A stretch of 32,000 nt of DNA from Methylorubrum extorquens (lineage in GTDB: Bacteria > Pseudomonadota > Alphaproteobacteria > Rhizobiales > Beijerinckiaceae): assembly GCA_900234795.1 (NCBI GenBank), contig LT962688.1, positions 2,970,001 to 3,002,000 on the forward strand, given 5' to 3'. Each line of letters begins with the position of its first letter. Positions within the stretch are counted from its first letter, which is position 1. The notes below the pieces were generated by a model. It was not told the origin of the DNA. It ran no database searches and saw only the letters and a program-made list of their open reading frames with translations. Shown piece after piece: positions 6,277 to 29,034 of this stretch. The translations under genes and the position numbers were made by a program.

Positions 6277-6648
6277 ATGACCGTCGAAGCCTGGCCGCCT
6301 GGCCTGCCGCACCTTGTTGGTTTGGCGGGCTCTCTCGGCTCGTCCCAGCTCTACGAGCCGGCGCAGACCACGCGGATGGATGACGGCCCCGGCCGCGCCC
6401 GCCGGCGCACGCTCACTGTCGAGACGCCGCGCAGCATCACCCTGACGCTGAAGCGGGCCGAGTTCGAGCTGTTCCTGCAGTTCGTGCGCGTCACGCTCAA
6501 CAATGGCGCCAAGCGCTTCACCGCTCCCGTGCGTCTGCCGTCCGGCCGGATCGGCACCCGCACCTGCCGCATCGACGGTGCCGTCTCCGAACAGGATGCC
6601 GGCCCCCACAGCCGCGTGACCTTCAACCTCCGCGTCTACGACTGGTGA
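6277..6648 (+). CDS. Minor tail protein (lambda M position)
   Basis: It is 123 aa and is the first gene after the tape measure. Assigned by position only. Confidence 0.5.
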   Translation: MTVEAWPPGLPHLVGLAGSLGSSQLYEPAQTTRMDDGPGRARRRTLTVETPRSITLTLKRAEFELFLQFVRVTLNNGAKRFTAPVRLPSGRIGTRTCRIDGAVSEQDAGPHSRVTFNLRVYDW

Positions 6649-14864: not shown

Positions 14865-14933
14865 GCCCGACCCGCTCGCTGCGCCACCCGGCCCGAGCCC
14901 GACACGTCCCCCTCAACATCGGAGAACACCATC

Positions 14934-15734
14934 ATGACCGTCGCCGAGATCCGGCGCGCTCTCTTGGCGCGCGGGTATGCCGTCGATACCGCCGGCGGCC
15001 TGGACGGGGCTATCCGCGCCTTCCAGCGCGATGCCGGGCTCGTACCCGACGGCGACGTCGGCCCGCTCACCCGGGCCGCCTTCGCCAAGCCGATCGCGAC
15101 GAAGCCGACCGGCACGACGGCGCCGATCGGCGGCATCGCCGGCCTCGTGACGGTCGCGCGGCTGCGGCGCTTCGAGCCGTTCGCCAGCGCGGAGATCCTC
15201 GCGGCGATCGCCGGCGACGTCGCCGCGATCGAGGCGGCCGGCATCACCACCCCGAAGCGCCTGGCGCACTTCCTAGCGCAGGTTGCCCACGAGTCCGCCG
15301 GCCTCGCCCGCACGGAAGAGGCACTGTCCTACTCGGCCCCGCGCCTGGTGGAGGTGTGGCCGAGCCGATTCCCGACTGTCGCCGCCGCGACACCCTACGC
15401 CCGCAACCCGCAGGCGCTGGCCAACAAGGTCTACGGTGGCCGGCTCGGCAACCGCCTGGCCGGCGACGGCTGGCGGTACCGCGGCGGTGGCGGCCTCGGG
15501 ACCACCGGCCGCGCGAACTACGCGGAGGCTGGCTTCGAGGCCGATCCGGACGCGCTGCGCCGTCCGGAGAACTTCCTGGCGCCGGCGCTGCTCTACTGGC
15601 GCACCCGCGGCTGCAACGCGCTGGCCGATCGGGACGACGTCGTCGGCATCACGGTGAAGATCAACGGCGGCAAGAACGGCCTCGCCGACCGCCGCACGCG
15701 CCTGGCGGCGGCCGAGCGCGTCTTCATCGCCTGA
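14934..15734 (+). CDS. Endolysin: N-terminal peptidoglycan-binding domain plus glycoside hydrolase family 19 domain
   Basis: LDGAIRAFQRDAGLVPDGDVGPLT looks like a PG_binding_1 domain. HFLAQVAHESAGL...NKVYGGRLGN...YRGGG looks like a GH19 domain. GGAGAA lies upstream of the ATG. Confidence 0.8.
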   Translation: MTVAEIRRALLARGYAVDTAGGLDGAIRAFQRDAGLVPDGDVGPLTRAAFAKPIATKPTGTTAPIGGIAGLVTVARLRRFEPFASAEILAAIAGDVAAIEAAGITTPKRLAHFLAQVAHESAGLARTEEALSYSAPRLVEVWPSRFPTVAAATPYARNPQALANKVYGGRLGNRLAGDGWRYRGGGGLGTTGRANYAEAGFEADPDALRRPENFLAPALLYWRTRGCNALADRDDVVGITVKINGGKNGLADRRTRLAAAERVFIA

Positions 15735-15788
15735 CCCGATCCGAGCGCCGGCGGTTTCCGGCGCCCCTCCCTTGTCGGAGATCTCCCC

Positions 15789-16181
15789 ATGTCGAAGCTC
15801 TTCCTCGCCCCCGGCGTCGTCGCCGGGCTGCTCGCGCTCGTCGGCGCCCTATCCGCGGCCTTCGGCTACCCGCTCGCCGGCGCCATCCTGGCCGATCCCG
15901 GCACGGCGGTGAACGCCACCATGGTGGTCACCGGTGTCGTCGGCCTCGTCGCCGGCATCCTCGGCGGCGTTCGCGGGACCGGTGTCCCGGCTCTGCCCGC
16001 CCCGGCCGTCGCCGCGGGCCTGTTCGCCCTGGTGAGCGCGCTCGCCAACGCGGCAGGCTACCCGCTCGCCGGCGCGATGCTGTCGGACCCCGGCACCGCC
16101 ACTCAGGCGACCGCGGTGCTGACCGGCCTCGGCGCGGTTCTCGCCGGCGTCCTGCCCGGCCTGCGCAAGCCCGCCGCGTGA
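15789..16181 (+). CDS. Holin candidate: 130-aa membrane protein with four predicted TM helices, built from an internal duplication
   Basis: It lies directly after the endolysin and has GGAGA upstream. Residues 10-60 and 74-124 are 32/51 identical by hand alignment. Confidence 0.5.
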   Translation: MSKLFLAPGVVAGLLALVGALSAAFGYPLAGAILADPGTAVNATMVVTGVVGLVAGILGGVRGTGVPALPAPAVAAGLFALVSALANAAGYPLAGAMLSDPGTATQATAVLTGLGAVLAGVLPGLRKPAA

Positions 16182-16232
16182 CCTGATCGCCGCCCGCCGC
16201 TCCCGGCGGGCGGTCTCCGCGCGGAGCCGACG

Positions 16233-16667
16233 ATGCCCGCCAACCCGTCGCCCTCCCCACCGGCCGTCCTGATCCGTGCCGAGCTCGATGCCATCGGCGC
16301 CGAGCTGGCGGTGCGCCTCCCGATCTCCGAACCGATACACCGTGCCATGGCCTCGAGCATCGACATCGGCTTCGACGGTCCGCCGGCCGAGCGCATCGCC
16401 GTCTCTCTCGCGCGGCTCGACGAGCGGCAGAAGGCCATGCAGGACACGGCCGACGCCCGCCATGGGCAGCTCGTCGCCATGCTGGCCGAGTACGCGACCC
16501 GCGCCGAGGTCGAGGCGAAGCACGTCAACATCGACACCCGCATCGGCGCCGTCGAGGATCGCGTTGAGAAGATCGAGGCGCGGACTTGGAAGGTGGTCGC
16601 CGGCATACTGTCGGCGGTTGGCACTGCCCTCGCCGGCGCCATCACGCTACACTTCCGGGGCGGTTAG
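16233..16667 (+). CDS. Tail-anchored coiled-coil protein, a possible lysis accessory
   Basis: It is 144 aa with GGAG 7 nt upstream and a single C-terminal TM segment (WKVVAGILSAVGTALAGAITLHF). It is the last + strand gene before the terminator. Confidence 0.45.
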   Translation: MPANPSPSPPAVLIRAELDAIGAELAVRLPISEPIHRAMASSIDIGFDGPPAERIAVSLARLDERQKAMQDTADARHGQLVAMLAEYATRAEVEAKHVNIDTRIGAVEDRVEKIEARTWKVVAGILSAVGTALAGAITLHFRGG

Positions 16668-16736: not shown

Positions 16737-17264
16737 GCGTTTCGGGGGGACGGAACAGGCTGTTAGCGGTGGGACAAAATCCGGCAAAAACCCTTATCAC
16801 TCAGTGGGTGTAACGACGGTCCCACCGGGGCTTAACCTATTGAATGGCTTCGCTTAGTGGGGTCCGTCCCTGGGCACCATCTTTCTGAAGAGCCCTAGAG
16901 CCTCAGAAAGTCAGGATTTTCTGATCTGTAGAGTTAAGTCGACTGTTTCGCGGCCTTCTCTCTATTCGCTTTGCGCCGTGTATCGGTGACCCGCCGAAGG
17001 GGTCATGTCCCTGCTGCTTGTCTCAGATCACCTTACGCTTATCCGGCGCCCGCCGTTCTGCTGTCTCAGTGTAGGGGCGCCGCCGGTTGCCGTCCTTCTC
17101 AGTTCCCTGAGTACCGCACGCTGCTGACAAACGGCCCCGTCGCTTGTTCGCTCATCGGTCGACGGCTGGGTTCTTCGGGAGGCGATCTCCAGACGGTCAA
17201 CGAGACCTGCGGGATGGGCGCTTCCCCGGTCCGCGTGATTCATCAGGACAGCGGCGAGCCCCCA

Positions 17265-17687
17265 TCACTGGAAGCGTGCCGCGAGCTTGCTCGAAGCTCC
17301 GGGATCGATGCGGTGCAACCGCTCCAGCGCGCGGATCGCGTCCCGCTCGGCCGATTCATGGTAGGCTGCTTTAACCCGATCCACGCGTTCGATCAAAACG
17401 TCGAGCTTTTCGAGTGGCGTCAGTTCGCGGGATGCCTCGCTCGATTTTACCAGCTCGTGAGCCGATTTTGCGGGCGGCATCGCACCAACCTTCTCGGCGA
17501 GTTCACGGACGGCCTCGGAAATGATCCCGAGTTGCTGGCCGAAACTTCCGACTTCCTTGATGACCGCGACTTCGATCTCCGGGACGCCCTGGTAGGGTCC
17601 CGCCGAGATGTCCTGACTCACCCCGCCGCTCAGCGGTGCGAAAAAGGGAAACGTGAACCACGAATACCAAGTCGGACTACCGGACAT
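17265..17687 (-). CDS. Orphan hypothetical protein, 140 aa, with an aromatic N-terminus and a helical C-terminal half
   Basis: The ATG at 17687 has GAGG 6 nt upstream (the longest ORF starts at 17822). The translation MSGSPTWYSWFTFPFFAPLSGGVSQDIS...SFGQQLGIISEAVRELAEK reads like a real protein, unlike the antisense + ORF. Confidence 0.5.
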   Translation of the reverse strand: MSGSPTWYSWFTFPFFAPLSGGVSQDISAGPYQGVPEIEVAVIKEVGSFGQQLGIISEAVRELAEKVGAMPPAKSAHELVKSSEASRELTPLEKLDVLIERVDRVKAAYHESAERDAIRALERLHRIDPGASSKLAARFQ

Positions 17688-17960
17688 GACGCACCTCGCT
17701 CTGTCGCAAGCCGCGTCATGGTCGGATCGTATGGGCTGACATTCAAGCTCACCCCCATGCCTGCTTGCACGGGCGAAATGCTGGATGGCGACTATGCCAA
17801 TCCTCGGCATCGAAAATGGCATGACGAACCTGATGCGCAGGCTTGAGCGATGTGTCGGTGTAGACCCGAAACAAGAATTCGCTCACTGGAGGTTAACAGT
17901 GCCAATCAGATGCAGCTGTGCGCAGACGTTGTGTGAAAGAGAAACTGCGCAGGGATATCG

Positions 17961-18100
17961 GAGCAATTAAATCGAAAGCGAAGAAAATTGATTTAGTAAT
18001 GCCCGAGTATACTATAAAATGTTTGATTGAATCGGATATGAGGTTATATCATTAGGAAACGAGTGCTTCCGAAACATAAGAATCTAATTTATAGAAAAAG
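17961..18100. other. Extreme AT-rich core of the junction island
   Basis: A hand count gives 43 G+C in 140 nt (about 31%), against roughly two-thirds G+C elsewhere. No ORF. It contains the 8-bp palindrome AGTATACT at 18006-18013. Confidence 0.9.
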
Positions 18101-18117
18101 AGTCCAGCTGAACGACG

Positions 18118-18210
18118 TTACCACTCAAAAAACGAGTCCAGCCGCGGCATCAGGCAGATCAGTGTTCCTGCCGCGCCGATCACGCCTGCCATCATCACTA
18201 TCGCCGCCAC
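18118..18210 (-). CDS. Small hydrophobic peptide, 30 aa (paralog 2)
   Basis: Hand translation gives VAAIVMMAGVIGAAGTLICLMPRLDSFFEW-stop. The start is a GTG at 18210, with an alternative ATG at 18195. The SD is weak. It is a paralog of the peptide at 18310-18408. Confidence 0.35.
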   Translation of the reverse strand: MAAIVMMAGVIGAAGTLICLMPRLDSFFEW

Positions 18211-18309
18211 CGTCGGATCCCCGCGTCATCTCTTCGCAGCCATAACGCGGAAGAGGCTTGGGAAGTTTCACCGTCTGGACATGGCACGCGAGGGGAGTTC
18301 AGAGGGCCG

Positions 18310-18408
18310 TCACCACTTCAGGAAGCGGTCGGCGCTCGGCCGTGCGGCAACGGTGAGGGCGATCGCGCCAAGGGCGCCGATCAGCATGATAGAGGCAGCG
18401 AGAATCAT
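18310..18408 (-). CDS. Small hydrophobic peptide, 32 aa (paralog 1)
   Basis: Hand translation gives MILAASIMLIGALGAIALTVAARPSADRFLKW-stop. ATG with GGAG 8 nt upstream. Mostly G/C third positions. Confidence 0.45.
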   Translation of the reverse strand: MILAASIMLIGALGAIALTVAARPSADRFLKW

Positions 18409-18537
18409 GACAGTTACTCCACGACGCAGATTCAGGGACGTCCTCTGAACCAACGAGTGGGAACGATGGCGTGTGCCGTGCGGCAGATTGGCGTGCTCGA
18501 AAAGAGTTTGGACCGGAACCCGGCTGGAACGTCGGCC

Positions 18538-19011
18538 TCAGCTATCCCGGCCGATCCCCAACCCCCGCAGGAGATCACCGATCGGATCGATCCGAGCGGC
18601 CTGCTGCGGCTGCGTCGCGGTCGTCGCCGTACCTGAGGCCGGCAATGCGGTGGAAGTCTCGGCAGCCGGAGCCGGCCGCAGCCGCGTCGCGACCTTTGCA
18701 GCACGGTGGCGCCGCACGGCTTGCACCCGCTGGGTCGTGTCGGCCCCGGCGAGGTCGTCGGCCGCCAGGAGCGCGACCATCTCCGGTGACAGCAGCGTGA
18801 AGGTCGCGGGCTTCGGCGCCGGCACGCCTACGGTGTATCGAGGCGGATCGGCCCAGGTGGAACCTTCGGCCGCCTCGGCACTGCTGACGATCATGTTCTC
18901 GGCGCGCGACGGTGTCGGTGCCGAATTCTGCGTTCTCACCAGAGGCGAGGTCGCGAGGAGACCGAACACCATGACGGCGGTGGTCGCGAAGACGGCTCTA
19001 TAGTGTTCCAT
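18538..19011 (-). CDS. Hypothetical signal-anchored or secreted protein, 157 aa
   Basis: ATG at 19011 (a TTG at 19032 gives the longest ORF). The N-terminal hydrophobic segment is AVFATTAVMVFGLLATSPLV. GC3 is fairly high. No family recognised. Confidence 0.5.
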   Translation of the reverse strand: MEHYRAVFATTAVMVFGLLATSPLVRTQNSAPTPSRAENMIVSSAEAAEGSTWADPPRYTVGVPAPKPATFTLLSPEMVALLAADDLAGADTTQRVQAVRRHRAAKVATRLRPAPAAETSTALPASGTATTATQPQQAARIDPIGDLLRGLGIGRDS

Positions 19012-19390
19012 GCTTGCGAAACGTACCGCCAAGGTTCTGGTTCCAGCGCTTCAAATCTGTCATCGCGAGATTCGAATCGTCGACCTGCCGCGTGCCCCGG
19101 AGCCTGGAGGGGCCTCGGCGGAACGTTCCGAACCGCTCTCGCCAACCTGGTCGTCGTGCCGCGGGTTCGATCCGGCGATCACCTTCGGCACTTCGGCCTG
19201 CATCCGCTTGACGCCCCCTCCGCCCGCCATGCTAGAGACCGCGCTCGACGCAAAGGGGCCCAGGGTCCGTTTGTCATCAACCACTTAAGCCGCGCTCCGA
19301 AAGCATCCGGCCCGGAGCGCACTTGTCCGGGCGTCGTCGCGCTTTCGCGTCGCTCGTTCGGATCGCAGCCCCTCTCGCCCCGGTGACTGT

Positions 19391-21181
19391 TTGAGGACCC
19401 TCCTCGATCTCCTGCGGGTGATGCGGCGACACGACCGACGGCAGCTCCTGATGCTGGGGCTCGGGCTCGGGCTCGCCGCCCTGCTCGAAGTGGTCGGCGT
19501 CGCCTCGGTGCTGCCGTTCCTCACGCTGGTCGGCGATCCCGGCGCGGCCGCGCGAATCCCCTATCTCGCCAACCTCCGCGATGCCTTCGGTCTCGCCGAC
19601 GACCGCACCTTCCTGCTCGCGACCGGGTTTGCCGCGCTCGCCGCGATCCTGCTGACCAGCGCGGTGAATGCCGCCTTCGCCTATGCGCAGCTCCTGTTCG
19701 CCCACATGGTCGGCTATGGTTTTGCCCGGCGCCTGCTCGCCCGCTACGTCGATCGCGAGCGCCTGTTCTTCGCGCATGCCAACAGCGCCGAACTCGCCAA
19801 GAACGTGCTGAGCGAGACCGATCGCCTCGTCGTCGGCGTGCTCACCCCAGCCATGGTGATCGCCTCGCGCGGCGCCTCGGCGCTGGCGGTGGTGATTTTC
19901 CTGATCGCGTATCAGCCCCGGCTCGCACTGATCCTCGGCGGCGGCTTCGGCGGGCTCTACGTCGCGATCTATGTCGTGATGCGGGCCCGCCTCTCCCGGC
20001 TCGGCACCCGGGCGGTGGCGGGCAACGAGGGCCGCTACCGTGTGGTGCAGGAGACCTTCGGCGCACTGACCGAACTCAAGCTCTACGGTCGGGCCGAGAC
20101 GTTCACGAGCAGCTTCGATGCGCCGGCGCGCTCCTACGCCCACGCCCTCGCCTCCAGCCTGGTCACCGGGCAGTTGCCACGCTTCGTCATCGAATCGCTC
20201 GCCTTCGGCGGCGTGATCGCCGTGGTGCTGTTCGCGCTGACGCAAGGGATCGACACCGCCGGCATGCTGCCGCTGCTCGGCCTGTTCGCCTTCGCCGGCT
20301 ACCGCATGCTGCCGGCCTTCCAGAACATCTTCACCTCCGTCTCGCAGTTGCGCTTCCATCTGCCCGGCGTCCGCCTGATCGTCGATGCCTTGGCGGGCGA
20401 GCGGGAGCCCGCGCTTCGCACGGCCGAGCGCCTGCCCTTCGCGCAGGCGATTCGTCTGGAGGATGTCGCGTTCGACTACGAGCCCGGTCGTCCGACCCTG
20501 CGCGGCATCGACCTGACGATCGCTGCGCACACCACCATCGGCCTCGTGGGCCGCACCGGCTCGGGCAAGTCGACGCTGGTGGGCCTGATCCTCGGCATTC
20601 TCACGCCGACGCGGGGACGCATTCTGGTCGACGGCCATCCGCTCGACGGCGACAGCCTGCCGGCTTGGCAGAACCGGATCGGTTACGTGCCCCAGGACGT
20701 GTTCCTGATCGATGGCAGCATCGCGCAGAACATCGCTCTCGGCATCCCGCCGGACAGCCTCGACCGGGTGGCCGTGGAGCGCGCCGCGCGGCTCGCGGGC
20801 GCGCACGATTTCATCGCGGCCCTTTCCGCGGACTACGACACCGGCGTCGGCGAGCGGGGGGCCCGGCTCAGCGGCGGCCAGCGCCAGCGTATCGGCATCG
20901 CCCGCGCGCTGTACCACGACCCTGATGTCATCGTGTTCGACGAGGCGACCAGTGCGCTCGACGGCGAGACCGAGGCCGCGGTGATGGAGGCGCTCGGCGC
21001 GCTGGGCGGCACACGCACGATCATCATGATCGCCCACCGCCTGACCTCGCTGCGCCGGGCTGATACGGTCCATGTCGTCGAGGACGGACGGATCGTCGCC
21101 TCGGGGCCGCCCTCGCAGGTGATCGCGGATCCCGCTGTCTCGCCTCCGCCTGCGGACGCCGTCGTGGCCCCGGCCCGGTAG
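19391..21181 (+). CDS. ABC exporter, fused permease and ATPase (MsbA/MdlB-type half-transporter)
   Basis: It has a six-TM N-terminal half, Walker A (GRTGSGKST), the signature LSGGQRQR, Walker B (VIVFDEATSALD) and the H-loop (IAHRL). The start is TTG at 19391, with an alternative ATG at 19421. Confidence 0.9.
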   Translation: MRTLLDLLRVMRRHDRRQLLMLGLGLGLAALLEVVGVASVLPFLTLVGDPGAAARIPYLANLRDAFGLADDRTFLLATGFAALAAILLTSAVNAAFAYAQLLFAHMVGYGFARRLLARYVDRERLFFAHANSAELAKNVLSETDRLVVGVLTPAMVIASRGASALAVVIFLIAYQPRLALILGGGFGGLYVAIYVVMRARLSRLGTRAVAGNEGRYRVVQETFGALTELKLYGRAETFTSSFDAPARSYAHALASSLVTGQLPRFVIESLAFGGVIAVVLFALTQGIDTAGMLPLLGLFAFAGYRMLPAFQNIFTSVSQLRFHLPGVRLIVDALAGEREPALRTAERLPFAQAIRLEDVAFDYEPGRPTLRGIDLTIAAHTTIGLVGRTGSGKSTLVGLILGILTPTRGRILVDGHPLDGDSLPAWQNRIGYVPQDVFLIDGSIAQNIALGIPPDSLDRVAVERAARLAGAHDFIAALSADYDTGVGERGARLSGGQRQRIGIARALYHDPDVIVFDEATSALDGETEAAVMEALGALGGTRTIIMIAHRLTSLRRADTVHVVEDGRIVASGPPSQVIADPAVSPPPADAVVAPAR

Positions 21182-21241
21182 CGGTTCCGCCGCGGCCCGG
21201 CTATCGCTTCGAAGCGAAGCAGATGCTTGGGGGCGAGGGCA

Positions 21242-22120
21242 ATGGACGGGACGGTCGAGATCCGTGCGGATGACGGCAGCACGGCGCGGATCGCGCTGCA
21301 CGGCGCCGAGCCGGTCTCCTGGCATGTCGATGGCCACGAATATCTCTGGAGCGGCGATCCGGAGCACTGGAACCGGCATGCGCCCTGGCTCTTCCCCGTC
21401 GTCGGCGCCTCGTCCGGCGGCAGCGTGCAGGTGGATGGCCGGCGCTACCCGATGGCCCAGCACGGCTTTGCCCGCGACCTGCCTTTCGCGGTTGTTAGCC
21501 AAAGCGAGGATGCGGTTTCCCTGCAGCTGACCGACAGCGAGGCGACACGGGCGCATTACCCCTTCCCGTTCCGGTTGACGATCGATGCTCGCATCGCAGC
21601 GAAGACCCTCGCCTTCGAAATCCGGGTCGAGAATCCGGGCAAGGCTGCCCTGCCCTACGCCCTCGGTTTCCACCCGGCTTTTCCCTGGCCGTTTGCCGGG
21701 GGCGAGCGTCGCGCCGATGGCGGCTACGCGGTCCTGTTTGAGGAGGCGGAACGGCCGTTCGTCCCGGAGGTCGGCGCGGGCGGGCTGCTGGTGCATAGCG
21801 AGCGGGAACTGACCCTCGACGGCGCGCGCCTTGACCTCGATCCCGACCTCTTCAGCGAGGCCCTGGTCTTCCTGCACGCGCGGAGCCGGGCGATGCGCTT
21901 CGTGTCGCCGAGCGGCCGAGCCATCGCCATGCGGATGGAGGACTTTCCCCATCTCGCGGTGTGGACCAAGCCGACAGCGCCGTTCCTGTCGCTGGAAGCC
22001 TGGACCGGACATGCCGACTGGGCCGGCTTCGAAGGTAATTTGGAGAATCGCGATTCGCAGCGTCTGCTGGCGCCGGGCGCAAGCGCCCGGCACGGGATCG
22101 CGCTGGCGATCGAGGGGTGA
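21242..22120 (+). CDS. Aldose 1-epimerase family protein
   Basis: PWLFPVVG...MAQHGFARD...GFHPAF resembles the mutarotase-like family from memory. ATG at 21242 within the 21227 ORF. Confidence 0.75.
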   Translation: MDGTVEIRADDGSTARIALHGAEPVSWHVDGHEYLWSGDPEHWNRHAPWLFPVVGASSGGSVQVDGRRYPMAQHGFARDLPFAVVSQSEDAVSLQLTDSEATRAHYPFPFRLTIDARIAAKTLAFEIRVENPGKAALPYALGFHPAFPWPFAGGERRADGGYAVLFEEAERPFVPEVGAGGLLVHSERELTLDGARLDLDPDLFSEALVFLHARSRAMRFVSPSGRAIAMRMEDFPHLAVWTKPTAPFLSLEAWTGHADWAGFEGNLENRDSQRLLAPGASARHGIALAIEG

Positions 22121-22132
22121 GCCTAAGCGTAC

Positions 22133-22342
22133 TTAGTCGACGGCGATGATGACGTCGGAGCTCTTGATCACGGCATAGGCTTCGCCGCCGACCTTCAGCC
22201 CCAGCGAATCGACCGATTCGTTGGTGATGGCCGAGGTGACGATCTGGCCGTTGGCGATTTCGATCTTCACATGGGCCGTGGTCGAGCCCTTCTCGACCGA
22301 AACCACCTTGCCCTTGAGGACGTTGCGCGCGCTGAGCTTCAT
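22133..22342 (-). CDS. mop: Molybdenum-pterin-binding protein (single TOBE/Mop domain)
   Basis: The 69-aa product MKLSARNVLKGKVVSVEKGSTTAHVKIEI...AVIKSSDVIIAVD is a classic Mop sequence. Confidence 0.85.
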   Translation of the reverse strand: MKLSARNVLKGKVVSVEKGSTTAHVKIEIANGQIVTSAITNESVDSLGLKVGGEAYAVIKSSDVIIAVD

Positions 22343-22350
22343 CGACGGGT

Positions 22351-22409
22351 GTCTCCGCTTTTGAGATGGCCCTCCCTGCCCCAGCGGCAGCAGGCCGGCA
22401 AGCGGAGAC
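22351..22409 (-). promoter_or_regulatory. SD-sequestering stem-loop in the mop 5' leader
   Basis: There is a perfect 10-bp inverted repeat: GTCTCCGCTT at 22351-22360 and AAGCGGAGAC at 22400-22409. In the mRNA the 3' arm contains the GGAGA Shine-Dalgarno, 9 nt before the ATG. Nested GGCC/GGCC and CUGCC/GGCAG pairings lie inside. Confidence 0.35.
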
Positions 22410-22423
22410 GAAATGCTTTCCCC

Positions 22424-22798
22424 TCACGCTTCGGGGAAGTCGTCCTCGCCGGGATCTGCCTCTTCGGAGACACGGCGGCGGCAGCCCCATTCGGCGAGCC
22501 GCGCGTTCATCTCGTCGAGAACGAAGTGGCGGGCGCTGTCACGGTCGTAACCCTCATCGAGGAGGTCGTCGTACTCAGTGAAGCTGTGCCGGGTGAACGC
22601 CGTCAGGGCGAGCCAAACCGCGGTTTCCGGCACCGCGCCGCGCAGACCGGGACTGCGCAACGCCCGGTCCAGCACCGCCTCCGCCTCGAAATCCGGAAGG
22701 CGCGGCGCGAGACGGGCCAACGCCTCGGCCAGAACCGCGCGGCGGTCCATCGGCGGCGCTGCATGGCTCGGACGGTCCGGGCTCCCTGCCCTCTTCAT
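22424..22798 (-). CDS. DUF2293-like protein
   Basis: The motif TRHSFTEYDDLL...RDSARHFV matches my memory of DUF2293. The start could be 22798 or 22750. Confidence 0.65.
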   Translation of the reverse strand: MKRAGSPDRPSHAAPPMDRRAVLAEALARLAPRLPDFEAEAVLDRALRSPGLRGAVPETAVWLALTAFTRHSFTEYDDLLDEGYDRDSARHFVLDEMNARLAEWGCRRRVSEEADPGEDDFPEA

Positions 22799-22825
22799 GC
22801 GGCGGCCTCGCCTCGATCCAAAATA

Positions 22826-22854
22826 CGAAAAAGGCGGAGCCTTGCGGCCCCGCC
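22826..22854 (-). terminator. Intrinsic terminator after rpsI
   Basis: The minus-sense RNA reads GGCGGGGCC-gcaa-GGCUCCGCC (one mismatch) followed by UUUUU. It lies 27 nt after the rpsI stop. Confidence 0.6.
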
Positions 22855-22880
22855 CTTTGCACCAGCGAAGATGAAACGCC

Positions 22881-23366
22881 TTAGCGCTTCGAGAACTGGA
22901 AGCTGCGGCGAGCCTTCTTGCGGCCGTACTTCTTGCGCTCGACGACGCGCGGGTCACGGGTCAGGAAGCCTTCGCGCTTGAGCGAGGAGCGCAGCTCCGG
23001 CTCGTAGTAGGTCAGCGCCTTGGACAGGCCGTGGCGCACGGCGCCGGCCTGACCGGAGAGACCACCACCCTTCACCGTGACGGTGATGTCGTACTGATCG
23101 ACGCGGGACACGATCTCCAGCGGCTGGCGCAAGATCATGCGCAGCACCGGACGGGCGAAGTAGGTCTCGACCGGGCGGCCGTTGACGACCACGGTGCCGT
23201 TGCCGGGCTTGATCCAGACGCGGGCGACCGCGTCCTTACGCTTGCCGGTCGCGTAGGCGCGGCCCTGGGCGTCCAGCTTCTGGACGTGGACGGGCGCCTC
23301 GTTCTCGGGGTTGCTCGTCTGGGTGTTCGCCCGATTGAGGTCGGCGAGGGACTGAAGGGTCGCCAT
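22881..23366 (-). CDS. rpsI: 30S ribosomal protein S9
   Basis: ...[11 protein letters not shown]...[19 protein letters not shown]...[13 protein letters not shown]. The ATG lies 3 nt after the rplM stop. Confidence 0.95.
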
Positions 23367-23368
23367 GA

Positions 23369-23830
23369 TCAAGCGCTCACGTTCTTACGGTTGAGGGAGC
23401 CGACGTCGAGCGCCTGCGGCTGCTGGGCCTCGTGGGGATGCGCGGCACCCTTGTAGACGCGCAGATGGCCGAGGATCTGGCGGAAGAGCGGGCCGCGCGG
23501 CAGCATGCGCTCGACGGCCTTCTCGACCACGCGCTCGGGGAACCGGCCCTCGAGGATGAACTTGGCCGAGCGCTCCTTGATGCCGCCCGGATAGCCCGTG
23601 TGGTGGTAGTAGACCTTCTGGTCGTACTTGCGGCCGGTGAACTTCACCTTGTCCGCATTGATGACGATGACGTGGTCGCCGCAATCGACGTGGGGCGTGT
23701 AGGCGGGCTTGTGCTTGCCGCGCAGACGCATCGCCACGATCGAAGCGAGACGGCCCACGACGAGGCCCTCGGCGTCGATCACGACCCACTTCTTGTCGAC
23801 GTCGGCGGGCTTCAGCGAAGTGGTCTTCAT
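23369..23830 (-). CDS. rplM: 50S ribosomal protein L13
   Basis: [30 protein letters not shown]...[13 protein letters not shown]... The product is 153 aa. Confidence 0.95.
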
Positions 23831-23906
23831 GGCCGATTCCCGTGCCGGTGACGTTGGAAACAAGGCGCCGCCGCGTCGGGTGAGGACGCAGCGGCGTACG
23901 GCTGGG

Positions 23907-23935
23907 TCAATAGGGGGATTCTGTGTCTTCGTCAA
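23907..23935 (-). promoter_or_regulatory. Sigma70-like promoter candidate for rplM-rpsI
   Basis: The minus-sense sequence is TTGACG-N17-TATTGA, about 75 nt upstream of the rplM ATG. Confidence 0.3.
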
Positions 23936-24065
23936 GGCAGACGCTGAACGCCTCGAAGAGAAAAGCGCAATCCGTGGAAGGCTTTTGCCGTTGCGGTATT
24001 GAGATACCGCATCCGGTTCGCCGTCTCGGCTTCTGCTCCTCCGAGGGGATCGCGACGAGCGCGAA

Positions 24066-24100
24066 CGAAAAAGCCCGCCACGGACGGAGCCGGGCGGGCG
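24066..24100 (-). terminator. Intrinsic terminator downstream of the transglutaminase-like gene
   Basis: In minus sense, GCCCGCC pairs with GGCGGGC around a 13-nt loop, followed by TTTTT. Confidence 0.5.
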
Positions 24101-24245
24101 GAGTTTGGAGATTCGTCCAGGCTTACCTGGAACATAAGATTGACGGGCTAAAATGCCGTTTAATCCGCCGGGCCCGAAAAAAACTTCATATCGCGCTCGG
24201 GCCACCGGATTCGCGGGGTGAGGCGTCGATCGTGAGGCGCCTCGG

Positions 24246-25106
24246 TCAGGCCGCGCCGGCATGCGGAGCCGGCTCCTCCGTCGAGATCGCATCGACCGTG
24301 CGCTCCATCGGCTCCGGGCCTCCGCCGGCGCGATCGATGCGGATCTCCATACTGGTCGGCTGCATCTCGCCGTAGGGCGTCGAGAAGGCGATTTCGGCGG
24401 CATCCCGCCCGATGCCGATGCGCACGAGACCGTCGAGATGGGCTTGGCGCGTCGCGTCGAACAGCCACCAGCGCCCATCGAGATAGGCCTCGAACACGGC
24501 GTGGAAGTCGCTGGGCACGAGGCCGTAGGCGTAACAGCTCACGAACCGGGCCGGGATGCCGAGCCCGCGGCAGAAGGCGGCGCCGAGATGGGCGAAGTCG
24601 CGGCAGACGCCGGCGCGCATCAGCAGGCTCTCGTCGGCCGTCGTCTCGCCGTCGCTCGAACCACGCCGATAGGCGATGTTGTCATGGATCCAGTTGCAGA
24701 TCGCATTGACGCGCTGATGGCCCTTCGGAAGGCTTCCGAACTCGGCTTGGGCGAAGGCGGCGAGCCGGTCCGACGAGACGAAGCGGCTCGGCAGCAGGAA
24801 GGGGAGGATGTCGAGGGGGAGCTCGGAGACGGGCGTCTCGGCAATCGTCGCCGGATCGGCCCGCACGACGGTCAGATCCACCTCGGCATTGTATTCGAGC
24901 GAGAACGGGCCGGGCTGCACGTTCACGCCGAGATAGCGGTTCTTGAGATCCGGCGTGACGTAGACGCGCCGCGCCAGGTCCGGCGCCAGGGTCAGGCTTT
25001 CGCGGGCGATGTCGAGGCTTTGCAGCTTCGCGACCTCGACATTGAAGATGAAGGTGGTGGGCGCCTTGACCTCATAGGCAAGACTGCAACCGAGCTTGAA
25101 TCGCAC
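24246..25106 (-). CDS. Transglutaminase-like cysteine peptidase family protein
   Basis: The motif [29 protein letters not shown]...[19 protein letters not shown] fits the transglutaminase-core Cys/His/Asp pattern. Confidence 0.8.
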
Positions 25107-25192
25107 GGGACGGCTCCGAATTTTGCGGGAAGATGCCTCATTCGAGCGAGGCGTTTTGCCGCAAACGCGCAGAGATCCGTTCGGCTCCGCTT

Positions 25193-25798
25193 TCAGGCTG
25201 CTTGTTTTTTGCGCTGCAGCAGAAGCACGGTCAGCGAGCGCACGCCTTGCGCCCCGTGGATCAGCACGCCCTCGATGTCGGCCGTCGCGGACGGACCCGT
25301 ATGGAGCACGGCATAAGCCGCCTGTCCGAAGTCCGGACGCTTATAGGCAGCCTGGATGTTCACGAGGATGTCGGCTGGGTCGAGCAGCACGATCAAGTGC
25401 TGGGCGAGATAGGCGACCGCGTTCACGATCAGGTCGTCTTGCGTGAACAGTACCGAGCCGGTCTCGGCGACGCCGAAGCGCGCGCGCACCACCGCCACGT
25501 CGACATCGTTGACCTCGGTCGGCTTGGCGACACCGGCGAGGTTACGATTCCCCGAGAATTCGGGCACGGCGGAGGCGATCACCGCCGCCCCGTCCAGACG
25601 CGCCCGCACCGGGGCGAAGGGATCGGACGGGCCGCCCGCACGCTCGACGCGCCCGCCCATCTTGCCCAGACGCTCGGCGAATTCGGCGACGAGATCGTCA
25701 CCCACCAGGGGCGCGAAGGTCGGCACCTCCGGCAGCGGGAAGTCGCCGGCCGGGCGGTTGGCCTTGAGCCGGCCGAGGATGGCCTCGCGGGCGCTCAC
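25193..25798 (-). CDS. lutC: Lactate utilization protein C (LUD domain)
   Basis: The GTG start overlaps the lutB stop as GTGA. REAILGRL...AETGSVL...GPSATADIE matches LutC/YkgG from memory. It is the third gene of a lutA-lutB-lutC string. Confidence 0.8.
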   Translation of the reverse strand: MSAREAILGRLKANRPAGDFPLPEVPTFAPLVGDDLVAEFAERLGKMGGRVERAGGPSDPFAPVRARLDGAAVIASAVPEFSGNRNLAGVAKPTEVNDVDVAVVRARFGVAETGSVLFTQDDLIVNAVAYLAQHLIVLLDPADILVNIQAAYKRPDFGQAAYAVLHTGPSATADIEGVLIHGAQGVRSLTVLLLQRKKQAA

Positions 25799-27369
25799 GC
25801 GTCGCTCCCCTTCTTCATCCGGTTCTGGCGGTACCACGCGTGGAAGCTCTGGCGCGGGGCGTGGGGCATCTCGCGCTTCTTCCCCCAGGTGTTGGCCGGG
25901 TTGTAGACGGCAAAGCGCGGCAGGACGCGCAGGGCCGAGTCGGCGGTCTGGATCGCGGCGCGGTACGCGGCGGGACGGCTCAGCACGGCGCCGGCGGCCT
26001 TCATCATGCCCTGCTTCAGGAGCGGGATCTGGTGCTCCTCCGCCAGCACCTTGCGCCAGGCGAAGATCTGCTCGTGGATGTTGATCTTCACCGGGCAGAC
26101 ATTGGTGCAGGAGCCGTTCATAGTCGAGGAGAACGGCAGGGTCGAGTATTTCCGCTTGTTGAAGGTCGGATCGATGATGAGCCCGATCGGCCCGGAATAG
26201 GTCGCGCCATAGGAGAGGCCACCCGAGCGCCGGTAGACCGGGCAGGTGTTCATGCAGGCGCCGCAGCGGATGCATTTGAGCGAGGTCCAGAACTCCTCCA
26301 TCGCGAGCCGCTCGGAGCGGCCGTTATCGACCAGCACCATGTGCATCTCGGTGCCGGGCCGCGGCCCGCGGAAATGCGAGGTGTACTGGGTGATCGGCGA
26401 GCCGAGCGCCGAGCGCGACAGCAGGCGGATGAACACGCCGAGATGCTCGACCCGCGGGATGATCTTCTCGATGCCGATCGAGTGGATCTGCAGCGGGGGC
26501 ACGTTGCCGGAGAGGTCGGCATTGCCCTCGTTGGTGCAGGTGACCACCGTGCCGGTCTCGGCGATGGCGAAGTTGCAGCCGGTGAGGCCGGCATCGGCCT
26601 TGAGGATCAGCGGGCGCGTGGTCTCGCGCTGGCTCTCGGCGAGGTAGTGGGCGTCATCGTTGTCGGGGTCGGTACCGAGCGTCCGGGCGAACACCTCGGC
26701 GACGTCGAGGCGGGTCTTGTGGACCGCCGGCATCACCACGTGGCTCGGCTCCTCGTCGTCGAGCTGCTGGATGCGCTCGCCGAGATCGGTCTCGATCACG
26801 TCGATGTCGTGGGCCGCCATGAAGTGGCGGAAGCCGCACTCCTCGGTCAGCATCGATTTCGACTTCACCAGCGACTTGGCGCCGTGCTTGCGCAGGATGT
26901 CGAGGACGATACGGTTGTGGTCCGCCCCATCCTCGGCCCAGTGGACGTGGACGCCGTTGGCCTTTGCGGCCGCCTCGAACTGTTCGAGGTAATGGTCGAG
27001 ATGGGTGAGCGTGTGCGTCTTGATCTGCGAGGCGATCTCGCGAAGCTCTTCCCACTCGGGGATGCCGTGGGCGGCGACATCGCGCTTGCGGCGCACGTCC
27101 CAGAGGCGCTCGTCATGGGCCTTCTGATGCATCGGCGCGGCGAGGAAGCGCTCGGCGGCCTCCGCCTGATCGATCGGGCGGTTGCCGCGTACCTTGGCGC
27201 CGCGGGGCTGCGGCTCGCGCGGCGCGTCGGCGCGGATCGGCTTCGAGGCGGCTTCGGCGTGCTGGAGCCGTTTGCCGCCGGGGCCGCGCTCGCTCTCGTC
27301 GGAGGGCGCGCGCACCTCGGGGTGGAGCACGTCCTCGGTCTGGCGCGGGGTCAGGTCGTCGGCGCTCAT
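25795..27369 (-). CDS. lutB: Lactate utilization protein B (iron-sulfur cluster-binding)
   Basis: It carries two 4Fe-4S motifs (CIRCGACMNTCPVY and CTNVCPVKI). The start overlaps the lutA stop as ATGA. The N-terminus has about 65 aa of low-complexity extension. Confidence 0.9.
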   Translation of the reverse strand: MSADDLTPRQTEDVLHPEVRAPSDESERGPGGKRLQHAEAASKPIRADAPREPQPRGAKVRGNRPIDQAEAAERFLAAPMHQKAHDERLWDVRRKRDVAAHGIPEWEELREIASQIKTHTLTHLDHYLEQFEAAAKANGVHVHWAEDGADHNRIVLDILRKHGAKSLVKSKSMLTEECGFRHFMAAHDIDVIETDLGERIQQLDDEEPSHVVMPAVHKTRLDVAEVFARTLGTDPDNDDAHYLAESQRETTRPLILKADAGLTGCNFAIAETGTVVTCTNEGNADLSGNVPPLQIHSIGIEKIIPRVEHLGVFIRLLSRSALGSPITQYTSHFRGPRPGTEMHMVLVDNGRSERLAMEEFWTSLKCIRCGACMNTCPVYRRSGGLSYGATYSGPIGLIIDPTFNKRKYSTLPFSSTMNGSCTNVCPVKINIHEQIFAWRKVLAEEHQIPLLKQGMMKAAGAVLSRPAAYRAAIQTADSALRVLPRFAVYNPANTWGKKREMPHAPRQSFHAWYRQNRMKKGSDA

Positions 27370-28109
27370 GCGGCGGCTCCGTTCAGCACCTGGGCGATGT
27401 GAATGTATTTGAGGCCGACGCCGAGACGCTCGGCGCAGCCCTTCTGGTGCATCAGGCAGGAGGAATCAGCCGAGACCACGTATTCGGCGCCCGCGCGGGC
27501 CTGATCGGTCACTTTGTCGTAGCCCATCTTGGCCGAGACCGCGGGCTCGAACACCGAGAAGGTGCCCCCGAAGCCGCAGCACTCGTCGGGCCGGGTCAGA
27601 TCGACGATCTCCACCCCCTTCACCTTCTTCAGAAGGTTGAGCGGCTTTGAGAAGAACGGCTGGTTCAGTTCGGTCGGCCGGGCATGGCCGATGCCGCGCA
27701 GCGCGTTGCAGTTCGAGTGGTAGGCGACCTTGTGCGGGAACTCCGCCCAGGGAAGATCCTCGATCTTGAGCACGTCGTGGAGGAACTCGACGAGCTCGAA
27801 CGTCCTGGCCCGCACATGCTTGACCGCATCGGTCTGCGGGATGGCGGTGAGGTGCTCGCGCACCTGATGCACGCAGGAGCCGGACGGGGCGACGATGTAG
27901 TCGAACCCGGAAAAATTCTTGACGAACAGCGCCTCGGTCGCGGCGGCCTCTTGATGGCAGCCGGTATTGGTCATCGGCTGGCCGCAGCAGGTCTGATCGT
28001 AAGGGTATTCGACGGTGAGGCCGAAGCGCTCCAGCAGTTCCAGCGTGGCGATGCCGACCTCGGGCTCGAAGGCATCGACGTAGCAGGGGACGAACAGTCC
28101 GATCCGCAT
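27366..28109 (-). CDS. lutA: Lactate utilization protein A ((Fe-S)-binding oxidoreductase with CCG domains)
   Basis: MRIGLFVPCYVD...DQTCCGQP...PDECCGFGG shows duplicated CCG motifs. The ATG is at 28109. Confidence 0.9.
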   Translation of the reverse strand: MRIGLFVPCYVDAFEPEVGIATLELLERFGLTVEYPYDQTCCGQPMTNTGCHQEAAATEALFVKNFSGFDYIVAPSGSCVHQVREHLTAIPQTDAVKHVRARTFELVEFLHDVLKIEDLPWAEFPHKVAYHSNCNALRGIGHARPTELNQPFFSKPLNLLKKVKGVEIVDLTRPDECCGFGGTFSVFEPAVSAKMGYDKVTDQARAGAEYVVSADSSCLMHQKGCAERLGVGLKYIHIAQVLNGAAA

Positions 28110-28231
28110 GGCGCTCTTCTGATCGTGATTTGAGTCGGTTGGCCCGCGTCTCCACCTTGGAACGGTTTCAAGCGGACAGGTGCTGCATACGCCTCCGATC
28201 CCCGGTTTCCAAGCGTGCCGCCTGATCCCGG

Positions 28232-28852
28232 TCAGTTGGTCACGGGGGCGGTCCGTCCGGCGGCGCGAATACGCTCCAGCACGCTCGCGTAGTTTTCCGG
28301 CGTCAGGATTCCGACGAGCTTGTCGCGGATGCGACCGTCCGGACCGATGATGAAGGTCTCCGGCACGCCGTAGACGCCGAGGTCGATTCCGGCCCGGCCG
28401 CTCGTGTCGGCGCCGACCGCCGCGAACGGCAGGCCGTTGCGTTCCAGCCAGCGCCGTCCGGCGTCGCCGGGATCCTTGTAGTCGATGCCGACGAGGCGGA
28501 TGCCGGGCTCCTGCGCAAGCCGCATCAGCATCGGATGCTCGATCTGGCAGGGGGCGCACCACGAGGCGAAGATGTTGAGGACGGTCACCTGCCCCTTGAG
28601 GTCCGCACTCGACAAACCGGGCACCGGCCGGCCGGCAGCCTGGAGGCCCGGCACCGGCTCCAGCGCGAAAGCTGGGACCGGTTTGCCGATCAACGCCGAG
28701 GGCAAAGCCGCAGGATCGGCACCCGAGCGCAGCCGGACCAGGAAGGCGACGGCCAGGATGGCGAAGACGAGCACTGGCAGCAGCGCCAGGAGCGAGAGGC
28801 GCGGGCGCTCCCCGGTGCCGGGCGGGGTCGCGTGCGGGGCCTGCGCGCTCAC
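28232..28852 (-). CDS. ccmG: Thiol:disulfide interchange protein for cytochrome c maturation (CcmG/DsbE)
   Basis: It has an N-terminal TM anchor, a WCAPC active site and the GVYGVPETFIIG motif. The GTG start overlaps the ccmD stop as GTGA. Confidence 0.85.
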   Translation of the reverse strand: MSAQAPHATPPGTGERPRLSLLALLPVLVFAILAVAFLVRLRSGADPAALPSALIGKPVPAFALEPVPGLQAAGRPVPGLSSADLKGQVTVLNIFASWCAPCQIEHPMLMRLAQEPGIRLVGIDYKDPGDAGRRWLERNGLPFAAVGADTSGRAGIDLGVYGVPETFIIGPDGRIRDKLVGILTPENYASVLERIRAAGRTAPVTN

Positions 28853-29001
28853 GAGCGACCTCCCCGCTCGTCCTGCAACTCGGCGAGCGCGCGGCGCTGC
28901 GCCCGCCCGTCCCACCAGCCATTGAGGGCCAGGGAGCCGAGCACCAGGGCTGCGAAGCCGTAGGAACCGACGATGAAGGGGGCGTAAGGTCCGAATTCCA
29001 T
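28849..29001 (-). CDS. ccmD: Heme exporter protein D
   Basis: This ORF is not in the track (50 aa). Hand translation gives MEFGPYAPFIVGSYGFAALVLGSLALNGWWDGRAQRRALAELQDERGGRS. It has a single TM segment and lies between ccmC and ccmG. Confidence 0.65.
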   Translation of the reverse strand: MEFGPYAPFIVGSYGFAALVLGSLALNGWWDGRAQRRALAELQDERGGRS

Positions 29002-29034
29002 GGCGGGTCTCAGAGTGCTCGTCCCATCGATCGT

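Follow-up and report, generated by a model that had tools for sequence, protein, structure and literature searches.

The 32,000-nt stretch of the Methylorubrum extorquens chromosome analyzed here (contig LT962688.1 of assembly GCA_900234795.1, positions 2,970,001 to 3,002,000; hereafter the window) carries on its minus strand two short tandem open reading frames (ORFs), pep1 and pep2, whose deduced products are small hydrophobic peptides. An original prediction had proposed them as a pair of paralogous membrane peptides. Both minus-strand ORFs were confirmed at the coordinates claimed, including the ATG of pep1 and the GGAG in front of it, and so were the 99-nt gap between the two genes, their shared orientation and their location 3' of a 157-aa ORF with a hydrophobic N-terminus (orf157). 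The two genes and the elements preceding them are the following:

18310..18408, minus strand: pep1, 32 aa, ATG start, product MILAASIMLIGALGAIALTVAARPSADRFLKW
18417..18420, minus strand: Shine-Dalgarno sequence of pep1, GGAG, 8 nt before the ATG
18451..18491, minus strand: promoter-like element of pep1, CCAATCTGCCGCACGGCAC (18491-18473), a 17-nt spacer and CGTTG (18455-18451)
18118..18210, minus strand: pep2, 30 aa, GTG start, product VAAIVMMAGVIGAAGTLICLMPRLDSFFEW
18218..18222, minus strand: Shine-Dalgarno sequence of pep2, GGGGA (GGAGG in other species)
18244..18270, minus strand: promoter-like element of pep2, TGAAAC (18270-18265), a 17-nt spacer and CGTT (18247-18244)

With either initiator the product of pep2 reads (V/M)AAIVMMAGVIGAAGTLICLMPRLDSFFEW. 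The GC content at codon positions 1, 2 and 3 was 0.62, 0.53 and 0.81 for pep1 and 0.60, 0.47 and 0.77 for pep2, a pattern that is coding-like for a genome of about 70% GC and that is missing from the overlapping alternative frames. A scan of a genome collection with the 157-aa protein returned 15 species; start codons, Shine-Dalgarno sequences and promoters were compared in 13 species and selection was analyzed in 11 Methylorubrum species. A Shine-Dalgarno sequence precedes both start codons in 13/13 species, in the case of pep1 as GGAG or GGAGG within the 20 nt upstream. The start codon of pep2 lies behind a conserved GGAG at the same aligned position in all 13 species, being GTG in 10 and ATG in 3, so that the conserved start is the GTG position originally preferred and not the internal ATG that had been offered as an alternative.

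In the ten closest species (the Methylorubrum clade), in which the identity of the 157-aa protein is 50-78%, both peptide ORFs were found downstream, intact and in the same order. The nucleotide alignment showed that the two ORFs can be aligned, in contrast to most of the spacers and to the DNA past the pep2 stop codon. The variable columns at codon positions 1/2/3 were 11/4/28 for pep1 and 6/1/21 for pep2 in the 11 species, and 2/1/11 and 1/0/9, respectively, when the last 12 codons were considered. The ratio of nonsynonymous to synonymous divergence (dN/dS), obtained by the pooled Nei-Gojobori method, was 0.14 for pep1 and 0.06 for pep2, with proportions of synonymous differences (pS) of 0.46 and 0.44. 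For the same species, the flanking ATP-binding cassette (ABC) exporter gene gave a pS of 0.36 and a dN/dS of 0.12, the flanking epimerase gene 0.375 and 0.21, and the 157-aa gene 0.53 and 0.44. The synonymous divergence of pep1 and pep2 is thus at least that of the flanking genes. This normal pS, together with the codon-position pattern and the low dN/dS, places the constraint on the amino acids and not on the nucleotides, and the estimated constraint is as strong as that acting on a housekeeping-type transporter. Related genomes keep both frames, and neither stops nor frameshifts were found in them in the 13 species or in about 40 database clusters. Judged by sequence comparison, pep1 and pep2 are genuine protein-coding genes under purifying selection. 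It is hardly credible that they are chance, non-translated frames or regulatory leader peptides or upstream ORFs serving a downstream gene. Their short length, the fact that RefSeq-style pipelines omit them for the most part and the lack of a detected transcription start in the strain DM4 data described below would suit such an explanation, but the codon-position pattern, the low dN/dS with normal dS and the conserved Shine-Dalgarno sequences and start codons oppose it; moreover, a leader peptide would have no conserved gene to serve, as what follows pep2 is either the tRNA-Phe gene on the opposite strand or lineage-specific DNA. The earlier description of the ORFs as unannotated was only partly true, since identical or near-identical peptides have been deposited in several GenBank genomes as "hypothetical protein": those of pep1 include ACK83688.1 / B7KPV2_METC4 of M. 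extorquens CM4 and Mpop_2656 of M. populi BJ001, and that of pep2 is Mpop_2657 / B1ZCC1_METPB of the latter strain.

The paralogy of both peptides was borne out by profile comparison. The ungapped alignment on which it had been proposed was reproduced by MAFFT which, with the initiator Met added, gave 11 invariant columns. In reciprocal searches with hidden Markov models (HMM) among all small six-frame ORFs from the fetched loci, pep1 and pep2 were each other's top non-self matches (E values from 5e-5 to 3e-2), and hhalign aligned their family profiles over 30 columns with a probability of 96.6% and an E value of 4.9e-10. By these measures pep1 and pep2 are anciently duplicated paralogues, their likeness being far beyond chance. 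The residues invariant in both types are, in pep1 numbering, M8, G14, A15, P24, D27, F29 and W32, and those invariant in the pep1 family are L3, M8, G14, A15, T19, A21, A22, P24, D27, R28, F29 and W32. Their common architecture consists of an N-terminal hydrophobic helix rich in Gly and Ala, with small-residue G-x-x-G motifs, followed by a Pro and a short, probably interfacial tail, and the shared C-terminal motif is P-x-x-D-x-F-x-x-W, in which the Trp is the last residue. The two types differ in the charge of this tail: that of pep1 (RPSADRFLKW) has a net charge of +2 and that of pep2 (PRLDSFFEW) of -1, and throughout the family the pep1 type is always net positive and the pep2 type always net negative.

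Each peptide had been described as one transmembrane (TM) helix with a short polar tail ending in Trp, and this agrees with both hydropathy and structure prediction. The best 19-residue Kyte-Doolittle windows scored 2.42 for pep1 (residues 2-20) and 2.26 for pep2 (residues 3-21). AlphaFold2, run with the family alignments, gave for pep1 two helices (2-21 and 23-31) at a predicted local distance difference test score (pLDDT) of 89.9, the predicted TM helix covering approximately residues 2-21, and for pep2 a single helix (2-28) at a pLDDT of 91.8. Both peptides are consequently predicted to be single-pass micro-proteins of the inner membrane, with membrane insertion and topology deduced from these features.

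A profile search covering 1.84 billion representative proteins yielded ten matches at E ≤ 1e-3. Nine of these have the N-terminal helix signature of the family, and eight of the nine, P0064 being the exception, retain the D-x-F-x-x-W tail at the C-terminus; P0059, a repetitive hydrophobic protein of 793 aa, was rejected as noise. An alignment-seeded search recovered 43 clusters and a query of pep1 and pep2 concatenated recovered two proteins. All named sources belong to Methylobacterium or Methylorubrum, among them M. longum, M. oxalidis, M. gregans, M. suomiense and M. rhodinum, and the databases call all members of the family "hypothetical protein". As in the original prediction, no known family was recognized: neither peptide had a match in Pfam or NCBIfam (hmmscan, E ≤ 1), in PADLOC, in PHROGs or among the chains of the PDB (sequence search, E ≤ 10), the whole window had none in Rfam, and no paper mentioning pep1 or pep2 was found in the literature. 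The pair, which no curated family covers, thus adds a new family to the small membrane proteins of bacteria, a kind already well known. The family is restricted to one genus and nothing in it contradicts current understanding.

Across Methylobacterium and Methylorubrum the order is always pep1 and then pep2, with a gap of 68-135 nt, and on the contigs of the more divergent members, too, the two genes stand in this order, 68-84 nt apart. The pair was found in six unrelated gene neighbourhoods, which are here given by clade or by locus:

Methylorubrum: orf157 and the ABC exporter
L022: HWE kinase
L023: DUF6894 genes and asparaginase
L027: response regulator and Ros/MucR
L029 and L032: glycosyltransferase and TonB receptor
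L034: hypothetical genes and resolvase

Each peptide gene has the other as its sole constant neighbour. Given that the surroundings vary and the order does not, the pair constitutes a self-contained module of two genes. This holds also with regard to orf157, which adjoins the pair only in the Methylorubrum clade. No peptide genes were found beside the distant orf157 homologues (loci L017-L021), the pair being elsewhere in those genomes; in one more distant genome the pair (L024) and the 157-aa gene (L017) lie on one contig about 70 kb apart. In the M. gregans group a gene of 63-65 aa with two predicted TM helices follows the pair on the same strand (L029 4408-4599, L032 4361-4558), and this gene is absent from the lineage of the window.

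Each gene of the pair is preceded by its own promoter-like element. The consensus of the general-stress factor EcfG in M. extorquens is GAAC-N16,17-C/GGTT (PMC4814048). The pep2 element ends in the window 33 nt before the GTG and matches this consensus at 7/8 positions; in 13/13 species a sequence of the form xxAAC-N16/17-NGTT ends 31-35 nt before the pep2 start, and the remaining spacer cannot be aligned. The pep1 element ends 42 nt before the ATG, and its upstream box (…CGCACGGCAC) differs from that of EcfG. The invariant 19-mer CCAATCTGCCGCACGGCAC is unique in the window and its 13-mer core, TGYCGCAMRGCAC, occurs once per locus in 29/29 loci bearing the peptides, always upstream of the pep1-type gene, and in 0/5 loci without them; the geometry GCAC-N16/17-(G/A)TT(G/T) upstream of pep1 is kept in 13/13 species. 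We infer from this conservation and from a geometry resembling that of extracytoplasmic function (ECF) sigma factors that both elements act as promoters and depend on such factors.

Several other interpretations of these upstream regions were tried. A structured RNA upstream of pep1 was rejected, as RNAalifold gave only a 4-bp hairpin without covariation, and because no conserved RNA structure was present the pep1 element was read as a promoter or operator acting at the DNA level. The apparent palindrome in the pep1 motif is confined to Methylorubrum, the substitutions of the other clades breaking it. Inspection by eye revealed neither the GG-N10-GC spacing required for sigma-54 nor the TTGACA and TATAAT boxes of sigma-70 in the pep1 element, and the one sigma-70-like match of the scan, extending over the pep1 start codon (18413-18386), was given no weight. 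A five-codon upstream ORF (MAAKR) in the pep2 leader was discarded, its ATG being lost in L009 and L016. Regarding the DNA between orf157 and pep1, its hairpins are mostly no more stable than those of shuffled sequence (z from +0.7 to -2.2) and a simple terminator scan gave nothing relevant there; read-through from the orf157 promoter into the pair is possible.

Transcription start sites (TSS) were taken from the differential RNA sequencing of M. extorquens DM4, for which cells were growing exponentially on methanol or dichloromethane (PMC9320726). The published table contains no TSS between rplM and tRNA-Phe and hence none for orf157, pep1 or pep2, which fits promoters that are active under specific conditions. 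The mapping was validated by orphan TSSs, which lie 22-27 nt in front of tRNA-Phe and 39 nt in front of tRNA-Thr. These strong "orphan" sites (DM4 3293591/3293596 on the minus strand and 3294676 on the plus strand, corresponding to approximately 12230 and 13315 of the prophage-free chromosome L001) are the promoters of tRNA-Phe and tRNA-Thr, which are not annotated in the table.

A prophage fills approximately the first 16.8 kb of the window and its end lies 1.25 kb from pep2, at the junction 16862/16863, inside tRNA-Phe(GAA). Positions 16863-16879 are the 17-nt 3' end of this tRNA (TGGTGCCCAGGGACGGA on the minus strand), which is intact at the equivalent spot of L001 (12133-12208); the prophage therefore integrated into tRNA-Phe. 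ARAGORN detected no tRNA in the window, so that the complete copy of tRNA-Phe must lie past the other prophage end. From 16863 to 29012 the window is collinear with L001 at 99.8% identity, and it is below 16863 that prophage DNA takes its place. The pair is identical and collinear in the prophage-free strains L001, L002 and L004, and it is conserved in the 11 Methylorubrum species, the DNA past pep2 differing in every lineage. Regarding the claim that the pair lies inside a low-GC island, the genes themselves have a GC content of 59-65% and belong to a block conserved across species, whereas low-GC DNA does begin right after the pep2 stop codon: positions 17950-18117 (168 nt, 35% GC) are lineage-specific and cannot be aligned with other species. 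This stretch is included in a variable segment between pep2 and tRNA-Phe (16863-18117, 1.25 kb, 56% GC), which may be left over from a previous integration at this tRNA.

The neighbouring prophage and island had served as a guide to function, a use that these data do not support. The pair lies outside the junction, is present in prophage-free strains and in unrelated chromosomal contexts, and is kept where the downstream DNA is wholly different. Prophage copies, for which a tblastn search had been suggested, did not appear: pep1 had no match in the phage and plasmid collections and pep2 none in that of plasmids, searches whose sensitivity the low-complexity filter of BLAST may lower. That the pair is cargo of a prophage or genomic island, devoted to phage exclusion or lysis modulation or carried as a moron, is suggested by the proximity of a prophage end bearing a lysis cassette and by the low-GC DNA that abuts it, but is scarcely tenable in view of the above and of the lack of matches in PHROGs and PADLOC. 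As far as synteny can tell, this possibility is effectively refuted and the pair belongs to the host chromosome. The peptides should accordingly not be pursued as phage-defence candidates.

The likeliest mechanism, in which we have about as much confidence as doubt, is suggested by analogy with known small proteins: pep1 and pep2 would form a stress-induced heteromeric pair with an accessory or regulatory role on a larger membrane protein. Envelope or general stress would switch on both peptides, which would insert into the cytoplasmic membrane and pack together through the small-residue faces of their helices and their oppositely charged tails, and the pair would bind and modulate, or stabilize, some larger membrane protein whose gene lies elsewhere, much as small accessory subunits such as AcrZ, MgtS, KdpF or CydX do. 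The heteromer was proposed because the tail charges are opposite across the family, and the accessory pair was preferred on account of the strict conservation of the polar tail, the complementary charges and an evolution like that of core genes; on these grounds we infer the heteromeric pairing and the existence of a partner. AcrZ, MgtS, KdpF, CydX/AppX and MgtR are proteobacterial proteins of 25-50 aa with a single hydrophobic helix and a short polar tail, and members of this type are often induced by stress or by particular conditions, bind a larger membrane protein and are often missed by annotation. Both peptides likewise have a single TM helix in no more than 50 aa, as seen by hydropathy and AlphaFold2. 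They differ from those proteins in that no sequence relationship was detected with Pfam or NCBIfam models at E ≤ 1, in that two paralogues always occur together and outside the operon of any target complex, and in the P-x-x-D-x-F-x-x-W-stop tail, which is unique to their family. The C-terminus of KdpF (…RPERF) superficially resembles that of pep1 (…ARPSADRF). The KdpF models (PF09604 / TIGR02115) matched neither peptide at E ≤ 1, and kdp genes (KdpF being encoded at the head of a kdpFABC operon) are missing from the window and from all six types of neighbourhood. A more specific version, in which an obligate heteromer with two distinct ECF-type promoters would integrate two stress inputs at the assembly step and gate or stabilize an envelope function relevant in the phyllosphere, is put forward only tentatively and is rather unlikely in all its parts.

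The main rival is a toxin-like or pore-forming role, of the type I toxin or persistence type, in which one or both peptides would oligomerize through the Gly/Ala faces of their helices and depolarize the membrane upon stress, being otherwise under post-transcriptional restraint. The type I toxins (Hok/Gef, Ldr, Ibs, TisB, ShoB, DinQ, Zor) are also small hydrophobic helices, often in tandem, linked to stress and missing from many annotations, so the size, hydrophobicity and tandem duplication of the peptides are what would be expected; also in favour of a toxin are the small-residue G-x-x-G motifs, the probably stress-type promoters, the lack of a TSS during exponential growth and a short 5' untranslated region of pep2 that is highly conserved within Methylorubrum and might be the target of a small RNA (sRNA). 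However, even at E ≤ 1 there was no match to any type I toxin model of Pfam and NCBIfam (Hok/Gef, Ldr, Ibs, TisB, ShoB, Fst and others), and the pair is conserved across the genus like a core gene and not patchily. Synonymous sites that evolve at least as fast as those of the flanking genes speak against an antisense RNA overlapping the genes or an antisense promoter embedded in them, and there is neither a conserved block downstream or on the opposite strand nor a conserved RNA structure in the pep1 leader: the only conserved non-coding blocks at the locus are the promoter-like boxes and short leaders, with no antisense or adjacent conserved sRNA visible. Paralogues in a fixed order throughout the genus, with an invariant D, F and W in the tail, would better fit specific protein contacts, and the tblastn searches retrieved no copies from plasmids or phages. 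The type I toxin idea thus appears to gain no specific support, a trans-encoded sRNA being possible, and we regard a toxin as an improbable though serious contender.

Much less probable is that the peptides are an exported two-peptide signal or a bacteriocin-like product, similar to ribosomally synthesized and post-translationally modified peptides, with the N-terminus serving as export signal or leader and the C-terminal D-x-F-x-x-W as the active or modified part. Class IIb bacteriocins such as lactococcin G and the plantaricins consist of two co-encoded peptides of about 30 aa with Gly helix-packing motifs that are active only as a pair, and the tandem arrangement and Gly motifs of pep1 and pep2 recall them; in addition, the C-terminal motif ending in Trp is invariant and an ABC exporter of the MsbA/HepA/PglK type, divergently adjacent in the lineage of the window, might release the product. 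Those bacteriocins are nevertheless of Gram-positive origin and come with double-glycine leaders, an immunity gene and an ABC exporter with a C39 peptidase, none of which is conserved at the pair. The peptides have no double-glycine or other cleavable leader, their hydrophobic stretch begins at residue 2 without a positively charged n-region, and the ABC exporter, which has no peptidase domain, adjoins the pair in Methylorubrum alone, the neighbours in other species being unrelated and including no conserved modifying enzyme, immunity gene or transporter.

Several observations weigh against the accessory pair or against parts of it. No partner gene is conserved beside the pair in the neighbourhoods compared, so that the accessory-subunit idea comes by analogy only. 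In every species the pep2 motif departs from the EcfG consensus at one position, and the pep1 element, GCAC-N17-CGTTG, fits no citable sigma-factor consensus; its box may be an operator instead of a -35 box. Weak or absent expression would explain the missing TSS in DM4 just as well, and no expression, proteomic or phenotypic data were found for pep1 or pep2. Among the relatives, P0035, on a metagenomic contig of 528 nt, has a frameshift-like tail, and P0064 is the member without the tail motif mentioned above.

Annotation systematically overlooks small membrane proteins, and outside the enterobacteria a role is known for few of them. The pair is an unusually clean comparative case, with a dN/dS of 0.06-0.14 over only 30 codons, and its architecture of two genes with two distinct conserved promoter-like elements is unusual, its hosts being plant-associated methylotrophs. 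As M. extorquens is genetically tractable, the pair could show how the general or envelope stress response of alphaproteobacteria acts at the membrane. The result also justifies a family model, with which genome pipelines would call both genes consistently.

The gene upstream of the pair and its predicted promoter are located as follows:

18538..19011, minus strand: orf157, 157 aa, signal-anchored, with a hydrophobic N-terminus
19020..19044, minus strand: predicted EcfG promoter of orf157, GGAAC-N16-CGTT, ending 8 nt before the ATG at 19011

Scans of Pfam, NCBIfam, PADLOC and PHROGs gave no match for the product of orf157, whose conserved C-terminus is DPIGDLLRGLGIGRD. This protein is specific to the Methylobacteriaceae, all homologues found being from Methylobacterium or Methylorubrum. 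GCA_002117815.2 (CP021054.1, a complete chromosome of 5.6 Mb), several Logan assemblies and a leaf isolate of Methylobacterium encode an identical product. The GGAAC-N16-CGTT sequence is invariant in 16/16 species, even where the protein is only about 35% identical. The window contains three matches to the EcfG consensus against 2.4 expected by chance; since a lone match is not significant, the promoter call is based on position and conservation. As the motif ends so close to the ATG, a leaderless mRNA is predicted, and the orf157 transcript is probably both leaderless and dependent on EcfG. This corrects the start of the gene and suggests that the longer starts found in databases (from the TTG at 19032, giving "MAVRFAS…") are wrong and translate the promoter. 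With respect to the EcfG/PhyR general stress regulon of alphaproteobacteria, orf157 has a perfect and invariant match and pep2 a conserved one, suitably spaced from its start codon, that deviates at one position, whereas the upstream box of pep1 (…CGCACGGCAC) sets this gene apart; for all three genes, regulon membership is a prediction from motifs.

Other small genes were observed at this and related loci. The variable segment contains on the minus strand an ORF of 185 aa (17265-17822, GC content at third codon positions 0.69), called as 118 or 140 aa in other assemblies and having no match in Pfam, NCBIfam, PADLOC or PHROGs. The lysis cassette at the prophage end (14865-16667, plus strand) opens with an endolysin that carries a peptidoglycan-binding domain (14865-15734; phrog_181, E value 6.5e-62). 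After it come two small ORFs (15735-16181 and 16233-16667) that may be holin- or spanin-like, the second having a hydrophobic C-terminus and weak coiled-coil matches. Finally, in locus L023, from a Methylobacteriaceae metagenome-assembled genome, the peptide pair lies between two paralogous ORFs of about 45 aa (4729-4869, MTVVIAASFAAAAAAVANLYLVVCIAEIL…, and 6491-6628, MTILAATALVALAAAANVFLVVALADTF…), each with VPTAA at its end. Several DUF6894 genes and a LuxI/LuxR pair are nearby, and the two ORFs may represent another unannotated family of small proteins.

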